The notes below the pieces were generated by a model, which was not told the origin of the DNA, did not search any database, and saw nothing but the letters and a program-made list of their open reading frames with translations. Below are positions 29,500 to 41,315 of a stretch of 64,000 bases of DNA, in pieces. The position numbers and the translations under genes were made by a program. This DNA is from an uncultured Gemmatimonadota bacterium (GTDB lineage Bacteria > Gemmatimonadota > Gemmatimonadetes > Palauibacterales > Palauibacteraceae), in NCBI GenBank assembly GCA_964518305.1, contig CAZFDK010000008.1:14252-78251 (forward strand), written 5' to 3'. Each line of letters opens with the position of its first letter. Position 1 is the stretch's first letter.

Positions 29500-30849
29500 A
29501 TGAGCAATCGCCTGCTGGCCCCGCTATTCGCCGTCCTCGCGCTCGCGCTCCTCCCCGCCGTCGCCCCGGCCCCGTCCGAACCGGCCTCCGGCGCGCAGGG
29601 CGAGGCGACGCGTCTGCTCCGGCAGCCCACCGTCAGCGACAGCCTCATCGCCTTCGCCTGCGCCAACGACATCCGGGTGGTCCCGCGATCCGGCGGCGCC
29701 GCCCGGCGCCTGACCTCGTTCCGCGGCGACTTCCCCTGGACCCGCGAGCACTGGAAAGACGCAGGCGACATGATCACGGACGCCGAGATCTCGCCCACGG
29801 GCGCCAGGGCCCTCTTCCAGGCTCGCGGCGAGATCCTCACGATGCCCGGCTAGGAGGGCGAGCTCTTCTACCTGGAGAACCCCCAGCCGCTGACCATCGA
29901 CCGGGGGCCGCCCGCCGGCACCCTCCACCGCTACACGCTGGAGGAGCGGGATGCGTCCACCTTCCTCGAGGGCGTCCAGTCCTACGACGTCTCCCACGAC
30001 GGGAGCAGCCTGCGCTATTCGGCCCGGGGCCAGTGGGGCATCGTCCCCACCCGGGGCGAGGCGCAGGCGAGCCGGGGTGCGCTCCCCACCGACCGTCTGC
30101 GTGTTCGGGTGGATCCCTCCGAGGAGTGGGAGCAGATCGTCCACGAGGCATGGCGTATCGAGCGCGACTACTTCTACGTGGACAACATGCACGGGGCCGA
30201 CTGGCCCGATGTCCGCCGTCGGTGCGCCCCCTGGCTCGACCACGTCCGCCATCGGTCGGATCTCACCTACCTGCTGGACGTCATGGCCGGCGAGCTGTCG
30301 GTGGGCCACTCCTTCACCGGCGGCGGGGACGAGCCGGACGTGGACGAGGTCCCCGTGGGACTGCTGGGGGCGGACCTGTCCGTAGAGAACGGCCGGTACC
30401 GCATCGAGAGGATCTACACGGGCGCCCCGTGGACGCCGGACGTCCGCGCCCCGCTCGCGGAACCCGGGGTCGACGTCTCGGAGGGCGACGACCTGCTGGC
30501 CGCGGGCGGACGGGACCTGAGGCCGCCGACGAACCCCTACCGCCTCCTGGACGGGACGGCGGAGCGCCAGCCCACCCTCACCGTGAACGACAGTCCCACG
30601 GCGGAGGGCGCGCGCCGGATCACCGTGGTCCCGGTCGGCAGCGACACCGAGGTTTTGCGCCGGGCGTGGGTGGAGCACGACCGCGCCCTGGTGGACGCCC
30701 TCTCCGACGGGCGACTCGGCGGCGACCCGCAGCTGGAGCGGGCGGTTCAGGAGGCCCTCCGCCTGCTGGAGGAGAGGGATTGGCCGCGAATCCGCCCCGA
30801 GCCCGACCCTCCAGTGCGGGTGAAGCGGCCCGGTGAGGGTGGCGGCTGA
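29500..30849 (+). pseudogene. Decayed tricorn-protease-like (S41) gene: in-frame TAG plus loss of most propeller blades and of the catalytic domain
   Basis: One reading frame throughout. Signal peptide, then LLRQPTVSDSLIAFACANDIRVVPRSGGAARRLTS (tricorn N-terminus). TAG at 29851-29853. Then VDPSEEWEQIVHEAWRIERDYFYVDNMHGADW...GELSVGHSFTGGGD, a PDZ-like stretch, and GRLG joined directly to the C-terminal DPQLERAV. About 450 codons, versus the more than 1000 I recall for intact homologs. Confidence 0.6.
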
Positions 30850-30894: not shown

Positions 30895-31113
30895 CTACTC
30901 CGGCCCGCCCCGACGTCTGCTCCGAAGGTAGTCCCGGATCCGGTGGACCAGGGGCGCGACGAGCCCTCCGACGGTGAGGCCGATGACCGAGAAGAGGAGG
31001 AGCGGTCCCCAGTTGGAGAAGACGGGGGCGTCGATGGCGGCGTTCATGTATAAGCCGAGGACGAGGAACACGATCCAACCCGTCACGGCGCCGGCGACTG
31101 TTCGTCGTACCAC
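30895..31113 (-). CDS. Small membrane protein (2 TM)
   Basis: GAVTGWIVFLVLGLY...LLLFSVIGLTVGGLVAPL. Starts 2 nt after the hydrolase stop. Confidence 0.5.
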   Translation of the reverse strand: MVRRTVAGAVTGWIVFLVLGLYMNAAIDAPVFSNWGPLLLFSVIGLTVGGLVAPLVHRIRDYLRSRRRGGPE

Positions 31114-31114
31114 G

Positions 31115-32044
31115 CTATCCTCCCTCCGGGGACGTCGGGTCGGACTCCCGGCTTCTCCGCATACTCCGTCGCACTCCGCCCGCCAGCCGCTCCGGGCGGT
31201 CCTCCTGCAGATAGTGGCCGGCGTCCTCCACGCGGTCCACGGAAGCCTCCGGGAACCGGTCGCGCCAGCGGCTCAGGTATCCCTCCCGGCCCAGGGCCGG
31301 GTCCTTCGTCCCCCAGATCAGCTCCAGGGGTAGCGAGTCCAGCCCCCGGGCCTCCCGCCACGTGGTCTCCAGCCAGCCGGCGAACGTCCGTATGGCGCGG
31401 GGGAAGACCCAGGTGCCGCGGCGGCTGTCGCGGTCGGGAAACGGCTTCCTGTACGCCTCGAGCACCGTCTCCGTCCGCCGCTCGGAGCGATGGATTCCCA
31501 GCGGGACCACGTGGCGGGCGAAGAAGTTGTGCTCCAGCTGGAGCCAGCGGCCCATCGTCGCTCCCCCCATGAGTCTGGAGAAGAGCCGGAGACGCCAGTC
31601 CGGCGCCCAGCACCAGGTGTTCGCCATCACCAGCCCCGCCGTTCGGCCGGGCCGCTCGACAGCGATTTTGAGCCCGATTGAGCCTCCCCAGTCCTGCCCC
31701 ACCACGACGAGGCCGTCGAGCTGCAGCTCGTCCACGAGCTCTCCCACCCATCGTGCGTGCTCGCCGGGCGTGTAGCCATAGCCCTCCGGGTGGTCGGAGA
31801 AGCCGAATCCGGGGTAGTCCGGGGCGATGCATCGGCAGTCGCCCTCCAGATCGCGGATCACCCGGCGATAGAGGAAGGACCACGTGGGATTGCCGTGGAG
31901 CATGAGGACCGGACGCCCCTCCCCCACGTCCACGTAGTGCATGGCCGAGCCGCCGCGCTCCAACCAGCGGGATTCGAAGGGATACTCCCGCTCGTCCACC
32001 GGGAAGGGGCGGCGGCTCGCGTCCCGGCTCATGTCCCGGCTCAT
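31115..32044 (-). CDS. Haloalkane-dehalogenase-like alpha/beta hydrolase
   Basis: HGNPTWSFLYR, nucleophile elbow VGQDWGG (Asp) and DAGHYLQED. The start MSRDMSRD was created by a 12-bp tandem duplication. Confidence 0.85.
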   Translation of the reverse strand: MSRDMSRDASRRPFPVDEREYPFESRWLERGGSAMHYVDVGEGRPVLMLHGNPTWSFLYRRVIRDLEGDCRCIAPDYPGFGFSDHPEGYGYTPGEHARWVGELVDELQLDGLVVVGQDWGGSIGLKIAVERPGRTAGLVMANTWCWAPDWRLRLFSRLMGGATMGRWLQLEHNFFARHVVPLGIHRSERRTETVLEAYRKPFPDRDSRRGTWVFPRAIRTFAGWLETTWREARGLDSLPLELIWGTKDPALGREGYLSRWRDRFPEASVDRVEDAGHYLQEDRPERLAGGVRRSMRRSRESDPTSPEGG

Positions 32045-32099: not shown

Positions 32100-33803
32100 C
32101 TACGGCCGCGGCCCGTCGGTCCGGACGGCCGGGCCACCACCGATCTCGGCTCCGGCGCGGGCCAGGATCGTTCCGGAGCTGCCGGACATGGCCTCGTAGT
32201 AGCGGACGAACCGGTCGATCTCGTCGGCGTCCTGCTGCTCCAGGTTGTGGGCCCAGCGATAGGAGATGGGCTGGTACCACAGCTCCGCCTGGACGCTGAA
32301 CGGGCCGTCGGCGCCGGCCACGTCCACGGAGTATCGAACCCGATCGCGGCTGCCCGTGAAGTCGTCGTCCCCGAAGGCCCGACCCTGCACGGCCACGTCC
32401 TCGGGCACGTCCCCCTTGGTGAAGCCCTTCGGCAGGATCCGGTTGTCCTTCGTGAACCGGATCGCCTCCAACAGGCCCGTTGTCACGGTGCTGTCGGGAT
32501 CCACCATGATCACCTCGTAGATCTGGACCTCGTCCTCGCTGTCGATCTGCTCGTGGTGGGGCTCGAAGGCCCGAGGGTTGCCGTCGTTGTCGTTGCCGCT
32601 GATCGAACCGTCCCGGTTCAGCGCGCCGGACTCGAACACGACCTGGCCACTTCGGTCCCGGACCGTCAGGTAAATCCAGGCGCGCCGCGAGGGATAGGCC
32701 GTCGGCAGCTTGTGGCCTGCCAGGTTCGTCACCGAGACCGTAGCCGTCAGCCGGTCCCCGCGCAGAGAGGTGGTGTCGACGCTCATCCTTGCGGCGCTGG
32801 TCTCCAGATGCTGGATCGTGCGCCGGGCTGCCGTGGAGAACTGCTGGGACGTGGCCTGGACGCCGAGCTCGCTTCCGTAGCGGGCGAAGAGGCGCTGCAT
32901 GAAGAAGTTTCCGCCGCGGAAGACGTGGCGGTTCACGCTGTCCCTCGGCTGACCGAGCACGCCGGTGACGGCCACCTCCTCCTCCACCACGGGCATGTGG
33001 CAGTCCTGGCAGCTCTTCTCGTCCCGGTAGTCGCTGTTCAGCCACTCCACGTAGGGCACCTGCTCGGGTAGCTCGCCGATGGCCTCCCCCTGCTCGTTCA
33101 GCGTGTGGGTATAGAGCGTGTGGCAGCTGGCGCACAGCTCCGACTCCTGGATGTGGGAGCCCTGGCGCGGCGTGTACGCCGAGGCGGAGTGCATCAGGCT
33201 GGTCCGGCCCGTGTCCACGGCGAACGGCCCGAAGATCTCACGCTGGTTCCAGGGCGTCACCGAATCGATGACGAAGCCGCCGACGAAGCTCTCCTCCGTG
33301 CCCAGCTTCTCCGGCTGGATCTGGTGGCACACGGTGCACGAGACGCCGTCGGCCGCCAGGACGTCCTGTCGCGTCGCCGCTTTCTTCGCCCCCGGCTGGC
33401 CGTGGATGAACGGCAGGTGGGTGAAGATCTTCCCGCTGGCGCCGCCGACCTTCGCCCGGTAGCGGGACATCGGCATGTGGCAGGTGGAGCACTCGTCCTG
33501 GATGGCCTCCGACGCGCTCGGGTGCAAAAGGGTCTCCCGCCGGATGGAAGCCTGCCAGTAGGGATCTCGGGCGGAGTTGGCCATCATGGACGCCTCCCAG
33601 TCCTTGCCGATGGAGACGTCCTTCCCCGACGGGGTGATCATCCCGTTGTGGCAGGCGACGCACATGTTCCCGGTCTGGAACATCTGCGGGTGACCCTGCC
33701 CCGGTTGACCGCCGGCCTCCTGGGCCGGCATCGCTCCGGGCGCCAACAGCAGTGCTCCGGCGAACGCCGCGAGCGCGGTCCGTCCCATCGTGGCCTCTCG
33801 CAT
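32100..33803 (-). CDS. Secreted pentaheme c-type cytochrome with heme-free C-terminal domain
   Basis: Signal peptide. Five CXXCH motifs (CVACH, CSTCH, CTVCH, CASCH, CQDCH). AGGAG SD 6 nt upstream of the ATG at 33803. Confidence 0.87.
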   Translation of the reverse strand: MREATMGRTALAAFAGALLLAPGAMPAQEAGGQPGQGHPQMFQTGNMCVACHNGMITPSGKDVSIGKDWEASMMANSARDPYWQASIRRETLLHPSASEAIQDECSTCHMPMSRYRAKVGGASGKIFTHLPFIHGQPGAKKAATRQDVLAADGVSCTVCHQIQPEKLGTEESFVGGFVIDSVTPWNQREIFGPFAVDTGRTSLMHSASAYTPRQGSHIQESELCASCHTLYTHTLNEQGEAIGELPEQVPYVEWLNSDYRDEKSCQDCHMPVVEEEVAVTGVLGQPRDSVNRHVFRGGNFFMQRLFARYGSELGVQATSQQFSTAARRTIQHLETSAARMSVDTTSLRGDRLTATVSVTNLAGHKLPTAYPSRRAWIYLTVRDRSGQVVFESGALNRDGSISGNDNDGNPRAFEPHHEQIDSEDEVQIYEVIMVDPDSTVTTGLLEAIRFTKDNRILPKGFTKGDVPEDVAVQGRAFGDDDFTGSRDRVRYSVDVAGADGPFSVQAELWYQPISYRWAHNLEQQDADEIDRFVRYYEAMSGSSGTILARAGAEIGGGPAVRTDGPRP

Positions 33804-33813
33804 CGTAATCTCC

Positions 33814-34977
33814 TTACCAGCCGGCGAAGAAGCCGCCGTCGAAGTAGTCCCAGAGCACGTAGACCAGCACCTCGGTCTCGCGCACGTCGGCGTCGTTCAT
33901 CGGAATCCGCACGGCGACGTTGCCCATCACGTGCTGCCGGGTGTTCAGCGTCACCTGGAGCTGGGGGACCAGGTCCCAGTTCGTCGTGGCGCCGGACTCC
34001 AGCTCCCGGCTCCCGAGGACCTCGATCATGGGGGACCAGGCCCGGCCCCACTCGCCCGAGGTGAACGTCTTACCCAGGCCCGCCCGCCAGAAGCCCTCCT
34101 CCGTCCGGTCGTCGGTGGCGGGGATCTCCGCCCCGGTCTGCGCGTGGAGGAAGGCGCCGTTCGGAAGGAGCTGGCCGTAGGAGAGGAAGGGCTCGAAGGT
34201 GGCGGTGCCGTTCCCGAACCCGTCGCTCTCGTCACCGGTGGGGAGGATGACCTCGCCGGTCAGGCTCAGGATGCTCCCGCTCTCGAGGCCGTGGAAGAGC
34301 ACGCGCTTCCAGCCCAGGGCCATGTCGCCCAGGCCGCCGTTCCAGTTGGCGGACTCGCCCGCGGCGCTCACGTCGCGGAACCCGAAGGGCGCCACCACCT
34401 CGAGCTGATTCCGGGCGCCGAACCGCCGCTCGTAGACCAGCTCGTTCATCACGGCGGTGTTCCCCTCGGCGGGCACGCTGGTCGTCCACACCGCCTCGTC
34501 CTCGGGGTAGGCCTTCTCGGTGAACATGGCCCGCGGGAGGTTCAGCTCTCCCCGCGGCCAGTCGTCGTTGCCGCAGAAGCCCCGGATGTAGTCGATGGCG
34601 CGCTCGAGCTCGTCGGGCGTGAGCAGGCCGCCGAAGGCCGGCATCACCCGCCCGAAGCCGCGGACGCGGCCGCCCTGGTGGGCCACCGCCACCCAGTCGC
34701 CGGTGGGCTCCCTCGAGGCGAAGTTGCAGCTGGTGAAGTCGGGCAGCGGCGTGTCGAATCCGACACGGCTCTTCGGCGCACCGTCCCCGTCCACGCCGTG
34801 ACAGTTGGCGCACGCCGCCTCGTAGATCTCCTTGCCCGTGGAGGGCGCGTCCCGGGGAAGGACGTCGCCGCGACCGCTCTCCTGTCCATCGGCCGACGGG
34901 GCCGCGAGCGGCAGCATGAGCATCACCGCCGCGGCCAGGGCTGCCCGGGCCGTGCAACGCAGTCCCATGAGATGCAT
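33814..34977 (-). CDS. Monoheme cytochrome c fused to an outer-membrane beta-barrel-like (MetA/phenol-degradation-type) domain
   Basis: Signal peptide. CANCH with a distal VMPAFGG. The C-terminal ~250 aa carry EVILPTGDESDGFGNG and end in ...FFAGW. Confidence 0.8.
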   Translation of the reverse strand: MHLMGLRCTARAALAAAVMLMLPLAAPSADGQESGRGDVLPRDAPSTGKEIYEAACANCHGVDGDGAPKSRVGFDTPLPDFTSCNFASREPTGDWVAVAHQGGRVRGFGRVMPAFGGLLTPDELERAIDYIRGFCGNDDWPRGELNLPRAMFTEKAYPEDEAVWTTSVPAEGNTAVMNELVYERRFGARNQLEVVAPFGFRDVSAAGESANWNGGLGDMALGWKRVLFHGLESGSILSLTGEVILPTGDESDGFGNGTATFEPFLSYGQLLPNGAFLHAQTGAEIPATDDRTEEGFWRAGLGKTFTSGEWGRAWSPMIEVLGSRELESGATTNWDLVPQLQVTLNTRQHVMGNVAVRIPMNDADVRETEVLVYVLWDYFDGGFFAGW

Positions 34978-35152
34978 CGTCTCTCCCGCGTCTCGGAATT
35001 CGCTATCTGCGGCTCGAGGGCCGCGCCGACCTGCCTCGACTGATCCGCTTTCAGTCTAGCCGCCGCCGCGCCGCCGGTCTGTCGGGAAGGCACTTACTCG
35101 CGTCGTGGGGAACCTCCCGTGCGGCAGATCCCCGCCGGCGCCGGCCCTCGCG

Positions 35153-35177
35153 ATCGACAGCGAGAATCGCTGTCGAT
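35153..35177. promoter_or_regulatory. Perfect inverted repeat (11-bp arms, 3-nt spacer), candidate operator
   Basis: ATCGACAGCGA-GAA-TCGCTGTCGAT, in the divergent region between the cytochrome operon (start 34977) and the LuxR-type gene (start 35287). Confidence 0.5.
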
Positions 35178-35286
35178 TATGTTCATCGTCGAGCGGGCAA
35201 GTGAGAGACGCTTTGGCGCCCGGACAATCGTACATCCGCCGGATTTTCGGCCTGGAGCCGGACATCGAACACATGACGTATTCCCC

Positions 35287-35883
35287 GTGAACGGCCCGAA
35301 GTCCCCCGACCAGAAGCGGCTCTTGCTGCTCGTGGGCCTGGGACTGATCGGTGTGGTCGTCGGCGGCATGGCCGACCTGTATCTGGACGATCCGGAGACG
35401 TGGTGGAGTCTCCATGTGCTCGTGGAAGCGGGCATTGTGCTCCTCAGCCTGGGGCTCGCCCTCTACCTGTTGCGGGAATGGTCGCGTACGGAGGAGGTCC
35501 TGGAGCGGACCGAGGCGGAGCTGGAGCGGCACCGGGAGGAGAGGGACCGGTGGAGGGAGCGGGCCCGGACCTTCCTGGAGGGGCTCGGGCGGGAGATCGA
35601 CCGCCAGTTCGACGAGTGGAGCCTCACCCCTTCGGAGAAGGAGGTCGCCCTCCTGCTCATCAAGGGCTACTCGCACAGGGAGATCGCGAAGAAGACGGGG
35701 AGGAGCGAGCGCACCTCCCGGCAGCACGCTGGCTCGGTCTACGAGAAAGCCGACCTCGCCGGCCGGGCCGAGCTCGCGGCGTTCTTCCTCCAGGACCTCA
35801 TGCTGCCCGACGGCCAGCGCGGCGCCGGCGAGCGGGACCCCGCCGACTCGGCGTCCGACTCCGGAGTCAGCTCTCGGCGCTGA
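35287..35883 (+). CDS. Membrane-anchored LuxR/GerE-family transcriptional regulator (2 TM + coiled coil + HTH)
   Basis: LTPSEKEVALLLIKGYSHREIAKKTGRSERTSRQHAGSVYEKA. GTG at 35287 was chosen because the upstream 168 nt of the ORF are AT-richer and look non-coding. The 3' end overlaps the convergent RND gene by 17 nt. Confidence 0.68.
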   Translation: MNGPKSPDQKRLLLLVGLGLIGVVVGGMADLYLDDPETWWSLHVLVEAGIVLLSLGLALYLLREWSRTEEVLERTEAELERHREERDRWRERARTFLEGLGREIDRQFDEWSLTPSEKEVALLLIKGYSHREIAKKTGRSERTSRQHAGSVYEKADLAGRAELAAFFLQDLMLPDGQRGAGERDPADSASDSGVSSRR

Positions 35884-38800
35884 CCGCGGCCGCCGCGCGC
35901 TCTGGCTTTTCCGAGGTCCTCGGGGCGCCCCGCCCCTCCGCCCGGCTCTCCTCTCCGAAGACGGCTTCCTGGAAGCGGCTCGTCCCCTCTTCGAAGAGGG
36001 AATAGAGCACGGGCACCAGGAGCAGGGTGAGGAAGGTGGCGAAGAGAATGCCGACGATGACGGCGATCGCCATGGGGCCCCACCAGGCAGCCTGCTCCCC
36101 GCCCCAGTACAGCTCCGGCTGCAGGCCCGTGTAGAGGCCGAAGAAGTCGAAGTTGAGGCCCATGGCCAGCGGGACCAGGCCCAGCGCCGTGGTGATGGCC
36201 GTGAGCACCACCGGGCGGAAACGCGTCGTCCCGCCCTCCATCAGCGCCTCGCGCACCCCGAGGCCGTCCCGGTCCCGAAGGATCTCCACGTAGTCCAGCA
36301 GGACCACGCCGTTGTTCACCACGATTCCGGCCAGCGAGATGATTCCGACCCCGGTCATGACGATGCTGAAGGGCATCTGGAAGAGCAGCAGCCCCACCAG
36401 CACTCCGGAGGTCGACATGACCACCGAGGTGAGGATGATCAGGGGTTTGGTGACGGAGTTGAACTGGGAGACCAGGATGAGGGCGATCAGCATGAGCGCG
36501 GCCCCGAAGGCGGTCGAGAGGAAAGACCGCGCCTCGGTCTGCTCGGTCTGCTGTCCCGTGTACCGGATCTCGTAGCCCGTCGGCAACTCCTTCCGGAACC
36601 CCGACAGCGTCTGCTGCACCTCGGCCAGCACCGCGTTGCTGTTGAACGCGGACCGGACGTCGGAGCTGATCGTCGCCACCCTCTCCATGTCCTTCCGCTT
36701 GATCGTCCCGAGCCCCTCCTCCACCTCCCAGTCGGCCACCGACACCAGGGGCACCTGGGTCCCCCGGGCGTTCGTGATCGTCAGATTCTCCAGGGAGGAG
36801 AGCGTCTCCCGATCCTCCTCGGCCAGCCGCACCTCGATGTCGTACTCGTCCTCGCCGGTCCGGTACTCCCCGGCCTTGAGCCCCTGCACTCCGGTGCGCA
36901 CGGCCCGCCCGATCTGCGACGTGGAGAGCCCGAAGAGAGCCGCCTCCTCCCGGTCGATCTTCACCGACAGCTCAGGGCGCACCTCGTCCATGTCGTTCTC
37001 CAGGTTCACCAGCTTCGAGTAGACCGGCGCGTCCTGGATGATCGCCATGGCACTGTCCGCCAGGCGGTTCAGGCGGTCGGGGTCCGGTCCGACGATCTCG
37101 ACGTTCACCGGCAGTCCGGTGGGAGGTCCCTGCTGGGGCTGCTCCACGGAGATCTCCGCGCCCGAGATCCCGCGCGTCACGGTGGAGCGGATCTCCTCGA
37201 TCGTCCGGAACGAGCTCTGGGTCCGGTACTGGTAATCCTCGAGGTTCAGGGTGACGCGACTTTCGCTCGGGCTGGACGGACCGCCACCGCCGAAGCCCGA
37301 CGCGCCTCCGCCGCCGCCCACCGTCGTGACCACGGAGGTGACGTCCTTCCAGCCGTCCACGGAGGAAAGTCGGTCCTCCACCCTGTTCGCGATCCGGTCG
37401 GTGAACTGAACGCGGCTGCCGACGCCGGACTCGATCGACACGATGGCCTGGTTGGGCGGAATGTCCTCCGGGAAGAAGGTGACGCCGGCGTTCCACCGGC
37501 CGAAGGCCATGAAGCTCCCGATCAGGACGACGCCCGAGATGGCCAGCACGATCCCCCGGTGATCCAGCGCCCAGTCCAGCGCGCGCTCGTAGGGTCGCAG
37601 GAGGATCTCGAAGCCGCGGCTCTGGAACCAGTCCGCCGCCCCCCGGAGGACGAAGCGGTAGAGGAGGAAGAGCAGCAGCCCGGTGGCGGCGAAGAGCACC
37701 GCCGTGAGCCAGTTGGCCGCCCCCACCAGCAGCAGGCCCAGGGCCCCGGTGGCGTACAGCAGCCACCGGCCCGTACGGGTCAGGTCCACGCTCCTGCCCT
37801 CGCCACCCTTCGGCAGCAACAGCGCGCACAGGGTGGGTACGATCACCAGCGCTACGAAGAGCGAGCTGGAGAGGGTGATGATGAGGGTGAGCGGCAGGTA
37901 GCCCATGAACTCGCCCACCGTCCCGGGCCAGAAGAGCAGGGGGCCGAAGGCGGCCAGCGTGGTGAAGGTTGCGATGATGATCGGCGCCGCCACCTCGCCG
38001 GTGGCCTTCTTCGCCGCCCGGACGCGGTCCCACCCCTCCTCGGCGTAGCGATAGATGTTCTCCACCACCACGATGGCGTTGTCCACCAGCATCCCCAGGG
38101 CCAGGATGAGGCTGAACAGAACCACCATGTTCATGGATACGCCCGCCACCCAGAGGACGATGAACGAGAGGAGCATGGAGGTGGGGATGGAGATCGCCAC
38201 GAACACCGACGTGCGGAGCCCCAGGAAGAAGAGCAGCACCGCGAGGATCAGGATGAGCCCGGCGACGATGTTGTTCTCCAGGCTCGTCACCATCCGCTCG
38301 ATCTGGTCCGTCTGCTCCGAGGTGTAGGCCACGGTCGTGCTCGGAGGCATCTCGGAGCGCATCTCGTCCACGGCGTCCCGCACCTGGCGCGAGGTCTTCA
38401 GGATGTTGGCGCCGGACCGCTTCACGACCGACAGCGTCACCACCGGCGAGCCGTCGAGGCGGGCGAAGCTCTCCCGGTCGGCGAAGCCGAACTCCACGTC
38501 CGCCACGTCGCGCACGTAGACCGGGCGTTCGCCCTTGCGCGCCACCACCAGATCCTCGATGCGCTGCGGGTCCTCGAACCGCCCGCCCACCCGGAGCAGG
38601 TACTCCTGGGCCCCGGCGTCGATGGAACCGCCCGGAACGTCGACGTTCTCCGACTGGATCGTGCCGACCAGCTGGCTCAAGGAGAGGCCGTAGAACTTCA
38701 GATCGGTCAGGTCGACGCTCACCCGGACCTTTCGCTCCCGGCCGCCCCGCAACTCGGCCCGGAGAACCCGGTTGATCTGCTCCAGGCGGTCCTGGAGGTC

Positions 38801-39361
38801 CTTGGCGACTTCCTTGAGCCGGACCAGGCTGTAGTCCCCGGACAGGTTGACCTGCATGACGGGGACTTCGTCGGTGTTGAACTCGATGATCTGAGGGTCT
38901 TCGGCCTCGTCCGGTAGCTCCGGCCGGGCCAGGTCCACCTTCTCCCTCACCTTCTGGAGGGCCTCGTTCATATCCACCGAGGAGGAGAACTCCACGGTGA
39001 TGTTCGAGTAGCCCTCGATCGTCGTGGAGCTGAACTCGTCGATCTCGGAGATCCCCTGCAGCTCCTCCTCCAGCGGCCGCGTGACCAGCGTCTCCATGTC
39101 GGAGGGGGAGACGCCCGGATACACGGTGCTCACGGCCACCGTGGGAATCTCGACCTCGGGGAAGGACTCCTTCGGTATGCTCCCGTAGGCGAGCACCCCC
39201 GCCACGGTGATCAGCACGAAGAGCACCACCACGGCGGTGGAGTGCTCCACGGCGAAGGAGGTGAACGGGTTCTCCTTGAAGCGGTCCAGGAACGACGCGA
39301 GCTCCGCCGCGTCGCCCTGGGCCTCGATCTCGTCCGGAGTCGGCGTGTCGGACGTGGTCAC
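35867..39361 (-). CDS. RND efflux transporter permease (AcrB/CzcA superfamily)
   Basis: 1164 aa with 12-TM architecture and typical RND motifs (e.g. AAILRFRPVVMT-like TTRFRPVVLTAITT). GTG start overlaps the MFP stop (GTGA). Confidence 0.92.
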   Translation of the reverse strand: MTTSDTPTPDEIEAQGDAAELASFLDRFKENPFTSFAVEHSTAVVVLFVLITVAGVLAYGSIPKESFPEVEIPTVAVSTVYPGVSPSDMETLVTRPLEEELQGISEIDEFSSTTIEGYSNITVEFSSSVDMNEALQKVREKVDLARPELPDEAEDPQIIEFNTDEVPVMQVNLSGDYSLVRLKEVAKDLQDRLEQINRVLRAELRGGRERKVRVSVDLTDLKFYGLSLSQLVGTIQSENVDVPGGSIDAGAQEYLLRVGGRFEDPQRIEDLVVARKGERPVYVRDVADVEFGFADRESFARLDGSPVVTLSVVKRSGANILKTSRQVRDAVDEMRSEMPPSTTVAYTSEQTDQIERMVTSLENNIVAGLILILAVLLFFLGLRTSVFVAISIPTSMLLSFIVLWVAGVSMNMVVLFSLILALGMLVDNAIVVVENIYRYAEEGWDRVRAAKKATGEVAAPIIIATFTTLAAFGPLLFWPGTVGEFMGYLPLTLIITLSSSLFVALVIVPTLCALLLPKGGEGRSVDLTRTGRWLLYATGALGLLLVGAANWLTAVLFAATGLLLFLLYRFVLRGAADWFQSRGFEILLRPYERALDWALDHRGIVLAISGVVLIGSFMAFGRWNAGVTFFPEDIPPNQAIVSIESGVGSRVQFTDRIANRVEDRLSSVDGWKDVTSVVTTVGGGGGASGFGGGGPSSPSESRVTLNLEDYQYRTQSSFRTIEEIRSTVTRGISGAEISVEQPQQGPPTGLPVNVEIVGPDPDRLNRLADSAMAIIQDAPVYSKLVNLENDMDEVRPELSVKIDREEAALFGLSTSQIGRAVRTGVQGLKAGEYRTGEDEYDIEVRLAEEDRETLSSLENLTITNARGTQVPLVSVADWEVEEGLGTIKRKDMERVATISSDVRSAFNSNAVLAEVQQTLSGFRKELPTGYEIRYTGQQTEQTEARSFLSTAFGAALMLIALILVSQFNSVTKPLIILTSVVMSTSGVLVGLLLFQMPFSIVMTGVGIISLAGIVVNNGVVLLDYVEILRDRDGLGVREALMEGGTTRFRPVVLTAITTALGLVPLAMGLNFDFFGLYTGLQPELYWGGEQAAWWGPMAIAVIVGILFATFLTLLLVPVLYSLFEEGTSRFQEAVFGEESRAEGRGAPRTSEKPERAAAAVSAES

Positions 39362-40458
39362 GGGGCCTCCGTCAGCCGCACCCGGTCGCCGTCGGCCAGC
39401 TGCTGCTGTCCCATGGTCACCAGGCGGTCGCCGGCCTCGAGCCCGCTCCGTACCAGCACCCGATCGGACTCCCGGGGGCCGAGCTCCACGGCCCGGCGCC
39501 GGGCCACGTCACCCGACGCCGTCTCCTCGATCACGTAGACCGCGAACCCGTCGGAGGTACGCAGCACGGCATCCTGGGGCACGGAGATCGCCTCCGGCCA
39601 GCGCGTGCGGACCATGGAGACGTCAGCCACCAGGCTGGGCTTGAGCTCCCCGTCGGGGTTGGGCAGCTCGATCTCCACCGGCAGGGTCCGGCTCTCCTCG
39701 TCCACGGCCGCACCGACGTAGGTCAGCTCGCCGCGGAACATCTCGTCGTCCAGCGACGAGACCGTCACGGTGGCGCTGTCACCCGGCGCCACGTCGTTCG
39801 CGTACCGCTCCGGCACGCCGGCCGAGACCTTCACCGGCCGGAGATCCACGATGGTGGCCACCGTCTCTCCCGGCGACACCGTGGTGCCCAGCTCGACGGG
39901 ACGCTCGTCCAGGACCCCGGAGAACGGGGCCTCGATGGTCTTGTCGGCGAGCCGGGCCTCGAGCCGGTCCACCCGGGCCGCCGCCTGCTCCGCCTGCGAG
40001 CGGGCCTCGAGGTAATCCAGCTCGGAGATGGCGTTCTTCTCCTCGTAGAGCTCGCGCCGCCGCTGCCACTGCTCCTGCGCCAGATCGGACTGAGCGCGAG
40101 CCTCCTCGAGCTGGGCCCGGAGCTCCCGGGCGTCGATCTCGGCGATCGGCGCTCCGGCCTCCAGTCGCGCCCCCTTCTCGGCGGGGAGCTCCGTGATGCG
40201 GCCGCTCTCCTGTGCGGTGAGTTCCACCGTCCTCTCGGCCTCCACGGTGCCGGTCATGTGGAGGCGATCCACGAACGCGCCCGGACGGACCGTCCGGGTT
40301 TCGACGTCGACGATTCGGGGGGCGGAGGTCGAGTCGGCCACAGCCCCGTCGCCCTCCTCCGCGGCGGAGCCCGGCGAACCGGCACAACCCGCCGCTACGG
40401 CCGCCGCGGCGAGGCCCGCTGCCAGCGCTCCCAGCGATCTGTGGGTCGGACGTGTCAT
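39358..40458 (-). CDS. RND efflux periplasmic adaptor (MFP/HlyD family)
   Basis: Lipoprotein-like N-terminus (LAAGLAAAAVAAGC), a coiled-coil hairpin and beta-barrel domains. Confidence 0.87.
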   Translation of the reverse strand: MTRPTHRSLGALAAGLAAAAVAAGCAGSPGSAAEEGDGAVADSTSAPRIVDVETRTVRPGAFVDRLHMTGTVEAERTVELTAQESGRITELPAEKGARLEAGAPIAEIDARELRAQLEEARAQSDLAQEQWQRRRELYEEKNAISELDYLEARSQAEQAAARVDRLEARLADKTIEAPFSGVLDERPVELGTTVSPGETVATIVDLRPVKVSAGVPERYANDVAPGDSATVTVSSLDDEMFRGELTYVGAAVDEESRTLPVEIELPNPDGELKPSLVADVSMVRTRWPEAISVPQDAVLRTSDGFAVYVIEETASGDVARRRAVELGPRESDRVLVRSGLEAGDRLVTMGQQQLADGDRVRLTEAP

Positions 40459-40602
40459 GATCTCGTTCGTCGTCGAGAGAGAAGCAATCTCGCGCGAGCC
40501 GGCAGACCGGACTCGTCGACGGCGCCGGGCCGCGACGTCATGAGCCCATCTCTACGGGACACGGTGGCCGCGGTGTTTCAGCGGCTGTCCGTCAGGCTGC
40601 CG

Positions 40603-41250
40603 TCAGGCCACGGCCACTCCGCGCCAGACCTGCTCGAGCCGCTCGTGCGCTTCCTCGGGAGCCACGCCGCGAAAAGCCAGCAGGCGAGAGCTGAGGAACA
40701 GATCCCGGAACTCCGACTCGTCGACCTCCAGCAGACCGCGGTGGTAGAGGGAGAGCAGGCCGTGGCTGTGCGACCACAGGGTGAGCCCCAGCTCACACGG
40801 GTCCGTGTCCCGAAGCAGGCCGGCGTCCACGCACTCGGAGACGCGGTCCTGCCAGAACTGCTGTACGGCCCGCGCCCGATCGGCCGTCTCCCCGGGCAGC
40901 TCCTCGATGCCGATCAGCTCCGGGGTCGCGTAGAAGACTTCGTAGAGGCGCGCCTCCTCGAGGGCGAAGTCGAGGTACGCCTCCTCTGCGAGCCGCATCC
41001 GCTCGGCCGGCGATCCCCCCCGCAGGGCCCGGGTCAGGTAGCCCAGCAGCGACTCGTGGGCACGGCCCACGACGTCCAGGAGAACCTCCTCCTTGCCCTC
41101 GTAGTACCGGTACAGAGCGCCCGGGGTGACGCCGACCTCGTCGGCCAGGCGCCGCATCTTGAGCCCCTCGGGGCCCTCGTCCAGGTACAGTTTACAGGCG
41201 CAGTCCAGAATCTCGTCGCGTTGAGTCATCGTGAACGTCGTATACGACAT
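40603..41250 (-). CDS. TetR/AcrR-family transcriptional regulator
   Basis: N-terminal HTH LKMRRLADEVGVTPGALYRYYEGKEEVL. ATG at 41229 or TTG at 41280 are alternative starts. Confidence 0.85.
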   Translation of the reverse strand: MSYTTFTMTQRDEILDCACKLYLDEGPEGLKMRRLADEVGVTPGALYRYYEGKEEVLLDVVGRAHESLLGYLTRALRGGSPAERMRLAEEAYLDFALEEARLYEVFYATPELIGIEELPGETADRARAVQQFWQDRVSECVDAGLLRDTDPCELGLTLWSHSHGLLSLYHRGLLEVDESEFRDLFLSSRLLAFRGVAPEEAHERLEQVWRGVAVA

Positions 41251-41315
41251 ACCTCCTGATGTTTCAGCCTGGCGGCGCAAAGAGATAAACCTCGTTCACC
41301 CGTCTTGTGCCCTCC

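Follow-up and report, generated by a model that had tools for sequence, protein, structure and literature searches.

A widely conserved gene pair encodes a cytochrome c fused to a predicted outer-membrane barrel and a pentaheme cytochrome of the PHC fold

The gene pair described here stands conceptually, by analogy, between two known arrangements, the fused cytochrome-porins of the Cyc2 type and the ExtI/ExtKL pairing of Geobacter. It lies on a 64,000-nucleotide stretch of DNA from an uncultured Gemmatimonadota bacterium of the Palauibacteraceae (assembly GCA_964518305.1, contig CAZFDK010000008.1, positions 14,252 to 78,251 of the forward strand; hereafter the window) and consists of gene A, encoding a class-I cytochrome c fused to a predicted 12-stranded outer-membrane beta-barrel, and gene B, directly downstream, encoding a secreted pentaheme protein. 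ExtKL (MccSep) of Geobacter is a periplasmic, homotetrameric polysulfide reductase whose active site combines a His/Cys-ligated heme 2 (distal ligand C239) with selenocysteine 325, a residue of the peptide VEMTNHAGHSIPDGUPTPNR on a loop of the immunoglobulin-like (Ig-like) domain; how polysulfide crosses the outer membrane is, the same authors state, not known (Mihara et al. 2026, PMC13510729). ExtI, encoded beside ExtKL, has been described as a porin of the outer membrane through which selenite is taken up (PMC5877670). ExtKL has been grouped with GSU2801 and c552 in the PHC family of possibly catalytic pentaheme cytochromes, proposed as kin of the archaeal nanowire AvECN, and c552 of T. tepidum is a low-potential pentaheme protein with no assigned enzymatic function (Digel et al. 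2025, PMC11976967). The ExtHIJKL system of Geobacter sulfurreducens resembles our locus in that a PHC-fold pentaheme protein with an Ig-like C-terminal domain is encoded beside an outer-membrane barrel gene. However, ExtI is a separate, heme-free porin, whereas the barrel of A is fused to its own cytochrome c.

Channels of the COG4313/PF13557 type (Pput2725, PDB 4rl8) and FapF (PDB 5o65-5o68) are 12-stranded barrels and the best fold matches of A, and FapF and A both have an extra N-terminal domain and a conserved segment ahead of strand 1. Members of this family take up hydrophobic molecules or secrete amyloid subunits, and channels of both the COG4313 and FapF types are occluded by their own N-terminal segment. 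We found no cytochrome c-bearing member of the COG4313/FapF family in the literature searched. The MtrCAB and Pcc systems are likewise operons with an outer-membrane barrel and a multiheme cytochrome; their large barrels (26 strands in MtrB) sheath a multiheme protein, and surface lipoprotein cytochromes are part of the system. Unlike these systems, with their 20-26 strands, A has a barrel of 12 strands, B lacks a lipobox, and no heme lies in the membrane span. In Cyc2, a barrel of about 16 strands is predicted to enclose a short heme-binding segment, and an obligate multiheme partner is absent. As in A, an N-terminal monoheme c-type cytochrome and an outer-membrane barrel follow each other in one chain in Cyc2 of iron oxidisers (PMC8406198; bioRxiv 10.1101/228056). 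Unlike Cyc2, A has a complete class-I cytochrome c fold of 90 residues, a 12-stranded barrel of the COG4313 type and, nearly always, an adjacent pentaheme partner; no sequence relationship was seen between the two, which are set apart here by the description of Cyc2 and not by a direct comparison.

Homologues of both proteins are abundant, with more than 4,000 for A and at least 8,000 for B in a large protein collection, and both proteins are 55-65% identical across phyla. A scan of one genome per species recovered relatives of A in at least 505 species genomes, and the lineages that bear A are Gemmatimonadota, Acidobacteriota (Thermoanaerobaculia, Vicinamibacteria, Aminicenantes and Bryobacteraceae), Balneolaceae, Rhodothermales, Krumholzibacteriia, Bradymonadales and Cyclonatronaceae. 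We fetched 80 A loci, 77 of which carry enough downstream sequence for the presence of B to be judged, and found B directly downstream of A on the same strand in 73 of these 77, in Gemmatimonadota, Acidobacteriota, Balneolaceae, Rhodothermales, Krumholzibacteriia and Bradymonadales, with short spacers or overlapping genes at the junction. When the search was started from homologues of B instead, including one from Thermodesulfobacteriota, A was found directly upstream, overlapping B. Longibacter salinarum and Fodinibius sediminis, both in culture, have the two genes side by side as well, and Rhodohalobacter sulfatireducens is a further cultured carrier. Thus, the expectation of an earlier note on this DNA, made from the sequence alone, that the genes would be conserved together in relatives is borne out, and the data support the view that A and B are a functional pair conserved across several bacterial phyla.

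The same note had extended the operon to a dehalogenase-like gene and a 72-residue membrane protein further downstream. Genes on the same strand are indeed present there, but a link to the pair does not hold, since the two genes stand beside the pair in none of 82 other loci, and both are missing from the 727 nucleotides available beyond B in a relative with 93% identity in A. Moreover, when open reading frames (ORFs) were clustered over all loci, nothing recurred except A, B and the shadow ORFs antisense to them, with no other conserved neighbour. Because no other neighbour recurs, the dehalogenase-like gene and the 72-residue protein included, we take the module to consist of A and B alone.

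At the locus itself (Table 1), the sequence features and domains that the earlier note had read in A and B are confirmed. It had read A as a signal peptide, a class-I monoheme cytochrome c and a barrel of the MetA/COG4313 type, which agrees with the Pfam matches, the structural model and the fold matches, and each of the motifs it listed (CANCH, VMPAFGG, EVILPTGDESDGFGNG and FFAGW at the C-terminus) occurs in A. A soluble C-terminal domain had been considered as the alternative to a barrel; the domain is modelled as a 12-stranded barrel, and its best matches are FapF and a COG4313 channel. For B, the note had proposed secretion, five hemes and a C-terminal domain of about 270 residues free of heme, and the protein has the signal peptide, the five CXXCH motifs and the heme-free part of that length. 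The stop codon of A and the start of B are separated by 10 nucleotides, TAAGGAGATTACGATG, and the AGGAG that precedes B, also read earlier, overlaps the stop codon of A. A scan for promoters and terminators inside the operon gave no signal above background. GC content (guanine plus cytosine) is 0.95 at third codon positions in A and 0.92 in B, counted over both ORFs; because these values are typical for real genes in a window of about 70% GC, we regard A and B as such. The thousands of homologues across phyla likewise set the observation far above chance.

The N-terminal domain of A has the features of a class-I c-type cytochrome, namely a single CXXCH, a distal Met, a small helical domain and an export signal. 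PF13442 matches residues 44-132 with E 4e-11 (43.5 bits, gathering score 27) and PF00034 matches the domain with E 9e-9; in addition, the sequence profile of A matches cytochrome c chains in the PDB, and residues 48-132 are helical with high confidence in an AlphaFold2 model built with 60 homologues as input. The heme attachment site, C56-A-N-C59-H60, is encoded at 34798-34812 and the axial Met112 of VMPAFGG at 34642-34644. In the alignment of 60 homologues, C56, C59, H60 and M112 are invariant, as are C84 and C135, and the stretch ahead of them that forms the signal peptide is weakly conserved, with many insertions and deletions. Because C84 and C135 are invariant in the core family and are lost jointly in two divergent members (P0367 and P0384), they are probably linked by a disulfide with a structural role in the cytochrome domain.

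Between the cytochrome domain and the barrel lies a linker whose mean identity, 0.86, is the highest of all segments longer than 11 residues. In the model it is non-regular yet well defined, with a predicted local distance difference test score (pLDDT) of 92-96, and stands directly before strand 1; its motif is kept in relatives that are only 29-39% identical to A. By analogy with FapF and COG4313 channels, it is a probable lumen plug or periplasmic collar. Pfam match, AlphaFold2 model and Foldseek search agree in predicting that the C-terminal part of A is a 12-stranded outer-membrane barrel. PF13557 (Phenol_MetA_deg) matches residues 180-310 with 27.6 bits, above the gathering score of 22, and a precomputed match to it is present in about half of the listed homologues. 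The model (pLDDT 87) has 12 beta-strands with pLDDT above 90 between residues 161 and 376, and its predicted template modelling score (pTM) of 0.82 for the whole chain suggests that the cytochrome and barrel domains have a fixed orientation to each other. Against the PDB, Foldseek ranks FapF (5o68, E 6e-10) and the COG4313 channel Pput2725 (4rl8, E 1e-6) highest, followed by further outer-membrane barrels. Hydrophobic and polar residues alternate in the strands, and the last residue, W387, is aromatic and invariant; a terminal aromatic residue is usual in barrels inserted by the BAM machinery. The alignment of 60 homologues holds no CXXCH in the linker or the barrel.

Conservation is distributed unevenly over this barrel. 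Under the assumption of standard barrel topology (both ends periplasmic) and of simple alternation within each strand, mean identity is 0.49 in the predicted external loops L1, L2, L4, L5 and L6 and 0.82 in the periplasmic turns plus the C-terminal tail (Mann-Whitney p 3e-7), and it is 0.81 at lumen-facing strand positions and 0.66 at lipid-facing ones. Most insertions and deletions fall in the external loops, mainly in L2. Thirteen charged residues that face the lumen, ten acidic and three basic, are conserved at 90% or more. Read from the sequences in this way, the pattern is that of a conserved periplasmic face on which a partner docks and of a lumen that is functional or interacts with a plug, not that of a passive anchor. 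A periplasmic heme domain would fit the same pattern, because folding, heme attachment and disulfide formation of the domain take place in the periplasm, and we infer that the cytochrome domain of A is periplasmic.

Protein B has exactly five CXXCH motifs (C48, C105, C156, C224 and C265) and no further Cys. All five motifs are invariant among 59 homologues, each family member having ten Cys, all within CXXCH, and the homologue N-termini shown in the alignment are, like that of B, Sec-type signal peptides that lack a lipobox Cys. PF22113, the MtrC/MtrF domain II/IV family, matches weakly (32.8 bits, gathering score 30). The NCBIfam model of ExtKL, NF040886, matches B with E 1e-6 and 27.6 bits and is matched by 43 of the 59 family members, the best with E 7e-13, all of them far under its cut-off of 250 bits. 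In the model of B (pLDDT 84, pTM 0.85), the C-terminal domain is composed of a helical linker, an Ig-like beta-sandwich with insertions, and C-terminal helices. The sole significant fold match that Foldseek returned from the PDB is T. tepidum c552 (5ze8, E 3.8e-14, target-normalised template modelling score 0.69), and this match spans the heme cap as well as the Ig-like domain. The sequence profile of B finds 5ze8 too, at the motif NLAGHKLPTAYPSRR of the C-terminal domain (32682-32726), which contains a Tyr, Y370, that is invariant in the 59 sequences. Thus, by its fold match to 5ze8, B has the pentaheme helical cap and the Ig-like beta-sandwich with a long hairpin that define the PHC family. 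B and c552 share the H-x-x-P-T motif along with these domains; the solved c552 chain has 385 residues compared with 567 in B, and Ala occupies the position of Tyr370.

ExtKL/MccSep and B have in common the motif N-x-A-G-H-x-[IL]-P-x-x-x-P, five CXXCH and the Ig-like domain. When residues 356-375 of B (VSVTNLAGHKLPTAYPSRRA) are aligned by eye with the MccSep peptide that contains the selenocysteine, the alignment is gapless with 8 of 20 residues identical, which places Y370 at the selenocysteine position. MccSep has a conserved selenocysteine or Cys in the loop G-H-x-[IL]-P-D-G-[UC]-P where, by this alignment to the published peptide, B has an invariant Tyr. The differences go further, since heme 2 of MccSep has a Cys ligand and B has no Cys beyond its CXXCH motifs; B is also about 100 residues longer. 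The sequence profile of B gave no match to MccSep in the PDB copy searched, and a 40-residue composite of two published MccSep peptides gave no candidates in a homology search. We conclude that B shares the fold and probably the active-site position of MccSep but lacks its defining catalytic features. The invariant residues of the heme-free domain include Y370, R373, R374, H364, H416 and a GNDND loop, and the invariant Tyr370 together with the nearby invariant Arg and His suggests a chemistry unlike that of MccSep. Because B keeps its 55-65% identity across phyla over the full length, heme-free domain and invariant residues included, it looks like an enzyme. As a separate observation, a common scaffold seems to have been adapted through a single loop position, which is selenocysteine in MccSep, an invariant Tyr in B and Ala in T. 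tepidum c552.

Taking these features together, we give about an even chance to the reading that A and B form a two-gene periplasmic redox module anchored in the outer membrane and composed of a channel, a tethered cytochrome c and a multiheme enzyme. In this reading, A would insert in the outer membrane through its 12-stranded COG4313/FapF-type barrel, and its His/Met cytochrome c, stabilised by the C84-C135 disulfide, would be held rigidly at the barrel's conserved periplasmic face, while the conserved linker would act as plug or collar of a small, acidic and strongly conserved lumen. Soluble, periplasmic B, with the PHC fold of c552 and ExtKL, would dock on that face and exchange electrons with the tethered cytochrome c. 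B would probably be an enzyme and not a mere wire, with its active site where the Ig-like loop that bears Tyr370 meets a heme. The barrel would most likely serve as anchor and as the way by which a small substrate or product enters or leaves, and electrons would not be transported across the membrane. The precedent for such a substrate route is the porin ExtI beside ExtKL in Geobacter, which has been described as taking up selenite, a substrate of MccSep.

Several points weigh against the two-gene redox module. The evidence for contact between A and B is synteny, and the topology and alternation assumed for the barrel determine which of its residues are counted as periplasmic or lumenal. An autotransporter-like layout, with the cytochrome domain extracellular, fits the same strand topology equally well. 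Catalysis by B is an extrapolation from MccSep, both of whose catalytic residues are absent from B, and B could be a pure electron carrier. Moreover, polysulfide and selenite, the substrates of MccSep, are anions, and a lumen of net acidic charge, which predicts cation selectivity, speaks against them. The association with B is also not universal. Four of the 77 loci (L044, L071, L072 and L075), all in Gemmatimonadota genomes and three of them from one series of marine-sediment metagenome-assembled genomes, carry A without B within a downstream flank of about 6 kb; a sodium:solute symporter lies about 1-2.4 kb downstream of A in three of the four, and the genes downstream of A in these loci (symporter, amidohydrolase and others) offer no alternative partner. 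Divergent fusions, 29-39% identical to A and represented by four proteins on five contigs, lack B directly downstream in three cases, the other two contigs being too short to tell.

The family of A is larger than these loci, with 443 cluster representatives at E <1e-30 in an exhaustive profile search, and full-length members down to about 30% identity retain the cytochrome-plus-barrel architecture and the linker motif. Because the four loci and three of the contigs with divergent fusions have no adjacent B, the fusion can work without one, and it is older and broader than the partnership with B. One divergent fusion, P0314 (locus L090, 4832-7074), is 35% identical to A, has no pentaheme partner, and its start overlaps the stop of a preceding cytochrome P450 gene. 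That P450 is unlikely to be the direct redox partner of the fusion, as it has no signal peptide.

Other readings of the pair can be set against the same evidence. The barrel might do no more than tether the cytochrome c inside the outer membrane, with A and B forming a pure relay (an electron sink, store or shuttle) that has neither channel nor catalysis. We consider this a minority possibility, on the unlikely side. It draws on the occlusion of COG4313- and FapF-type channels, which are the fold matches of A, on the absence from B of the selenocysteine and Cys of the MccSep active site, and on T. tepidum c552, which has no assigned enzymatic function. Nevertheless, a simple anchor would have no need to keep its lumen-facing residues better conserved than those facing lipid, to preserve thirteen charges in the lumen or to hold a linker of 25 residues almost unchanged; a lipid anchor would be much cheaper, and the heme-free domain of B is conserved as strongly as its heme domain. 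It is clearly unlikely, but conceivable, that the pair represents a second, independently evolved fused cytochrome-porin, in which the acidic, strongly conserved 12-stranded lumen would conduct Fe2+ or Mn2+, or a small redox substrate, onto the tethered heme while the Tyr-bearing pentaheme partner supplied or removed electrons; this would make A-B a widespread and so far unrecognised redox gate of the outer membrane in Gemmatimonadota, Acidobacteriota and Balneolaceae/Rhodothermales, whose activity or gating is coupled to the redox state of the cytochrome.

The earlier note had seen in the pair the logic of porin-cytochrome systems, moving electrons either across the outer membrane or to a substrate at it. 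The second part remains plausible; the first does not agree with the 12 strands, the membership in a barrel family whose own N-terminal segment blocks the lumen, the heme-free barrel, the missing lipobox of B and its periplasmic relative. A conduit through the outer membrane that exchanges electrons with a mineral, an electrode or a metal ion outside the cell, comparable to MtrCAB, Pcc or Cyc2, is thus improbable in our view, even though an outer-membrane barrel and a multiheme cytochrome share one conserved operon, the family of pentaheme domains from MtrC/MtrF is weakly matched by B, a metal cation such as Fe2+ could reach the heme through the acidic and conserved lumen, and some hosts come from sediments and iron-cycling lineages. 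With only 12 strands and FapF and COG4313 channels as its matches, the barrel is too small to sheath hemes; neither it nor the linker contains a CXXCH, the folded heme domain of about 90 residues cannot fit a 12-stranded lumen, and no heme chain could span a membrane of about 30 Angstrom. Nor does B show any sign of surface display, and its characterised relative is periplasmic. Highly improbable is a secretion pore, in which A would export B or another substrate as a FapF-like polypeptide transporter and a surface PHC-fold cytochrome could polymerise like the archaeal filaments. FapF is the best structural match of A, and the proposed kinship of PHC cytochromes with AvECN (PMC11976967) could be read in this direction, but c-type cytochromes gain heme and fold in the periplasm, a pore of 12 strands does not let through a 60-kDa protein with five hemes, MccSep forms tetramers in the periplasm, and the module contains no other secretion components. 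We therefore keep the anchored redox module, in which the barrel would be anchor and substrate route and B a periplasmic enzyme, as the working interpretation.

Table 1. Features of the A-B locus and its direct neighbours, in window coordinates
Feature	Position	Strand	Length	Basis or remark
Gene A	33814-34977	minus	387 aa	ORF confirmed
A residues 1-30, Sec-type signal peptide (MHLMGLRCTARAALAAAVMLMLPLAAPSA/D boundary)	34888..34977	minus		direct sequence reading
A residues 45-135, class-I cytochrome c domain	34573..34845	minus		Pfam, alignment, model, PDB profile
A residues 136-160, linker GNDDWPRGELNLPRAMFTEKAYPED	34498..34572	minus		conservation and model
A residues 161-387, predicted 12-stranded outer-membrane beta-barrel, COG4313/FapF (PF13557) type	33817..34497	minus		Pfam, AlphaFold2, Foldseek
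A stop, AGGAG (33810-33814) and 10-nt spacer to B start	33804..33816	minus		direct sequence reading
Gene B	32100-33803	minus	567 aa	ORF confirmed
B residues 1-28, Sec-type signal peptide, no lipobox Cys	33720..33803	minus		direct sequence reading
B residues 40-300, pentaheme domain	32904..33686	minus		alignment, Pfam, NCBIfam
B CXXCH motifs	33648-33662, 33477-33491, 33324-33338, 33120-33134, 32997-33011	minus		
B residues 301-556, heme-free C-terminal domain	32136..32903	minus		model, Foldseek, sequence profile
Haloalkane-dehalogenase-like alpha/beta hydrolase	31115..32044	minus		PF00561 E 6e-27; no signal peptide
72-aa ORF	30895..31113	minus	72 aa	two apparent hydrophobic stretches in the translation; no family match
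LuxR/GerE-type regulator	35119..35883	plus		PF00196 E 6e-7; divergent from gene A, 141 nt away

The hydrolase and the 72-residue ORF downstream of the pair are incidental neighbours outside the A-B module. The best NCBIfam match of the hydrolase is PRK03204, with 245 bits against a cut-off of 466, so that it misses the equivalog cut-off for haloalkane dehalogenase, and it has no conserved link to the pair. Its start is most likely the ATG at 32044, 55 nucleotides past B, the overlapping GTG at 32140 being less favoured. On the other side of the pair, the LuxR/GerE-type protein is apparently membrane-anchored, judging from a hydrophobic stretch and weak, sub-threshold Pfam matches at residues 64-140. 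It was found upstream of A in one relative only (L004, 79% identity) and might therefore regulate the pair in that lineage only. Immediately upstream of A and B lies an operon for an RND efflux pump with a TetR-family regulator (35867-41280, minus strand), encoding an AcrB-like protein of 1164 residues and a membrane-fusion protein of 366 residues, and the pump occupies the same place in L004, the closest relative. Further from the pair, two pieces of a tricorn-type protease are encoded on the plus strand about 250 nucleotides apart, an N-terminal piece of about 117 residues with a signal peptide (29500-29853) and a piece with C1 and PDZ domains (30109-30849). Tricorn-type proteases carry a propeller region of about 700 residues; this is missing here, so that the gene looks truncated or fragmented.

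We found no description in the searchable literature of a fusion between cytochrome c and a barrel of the COG4313/FapF type, or of the A-B gene pair, and among the search matches the source annotations are a cytochrome c label (such as 'c-type cytochrome') or 'hypothetical protein', and nothing else. The module is thus abundant and uncharacterised, with thousands of sequences in phyla that dominate soils and saline and marine sediments. If our reading is true, it would show a periplasmic multiheme enzyme that is physically wired to its own outer-membrane entry port, a question left open for MccSep, the sulfur-respiration enzyme that is the only characterised member of the family. Cyc2 would also no longer be the only cytochrome-barrel fusion, and since it is a marker gene for iron oxidation, unrelated fusions of this kind matter for the annotation of metagenomes. 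Finally, that an invariant Tyr takes the place of selenocysteine suggests that a conserved multiheme scaffold here serves a different chemistry.

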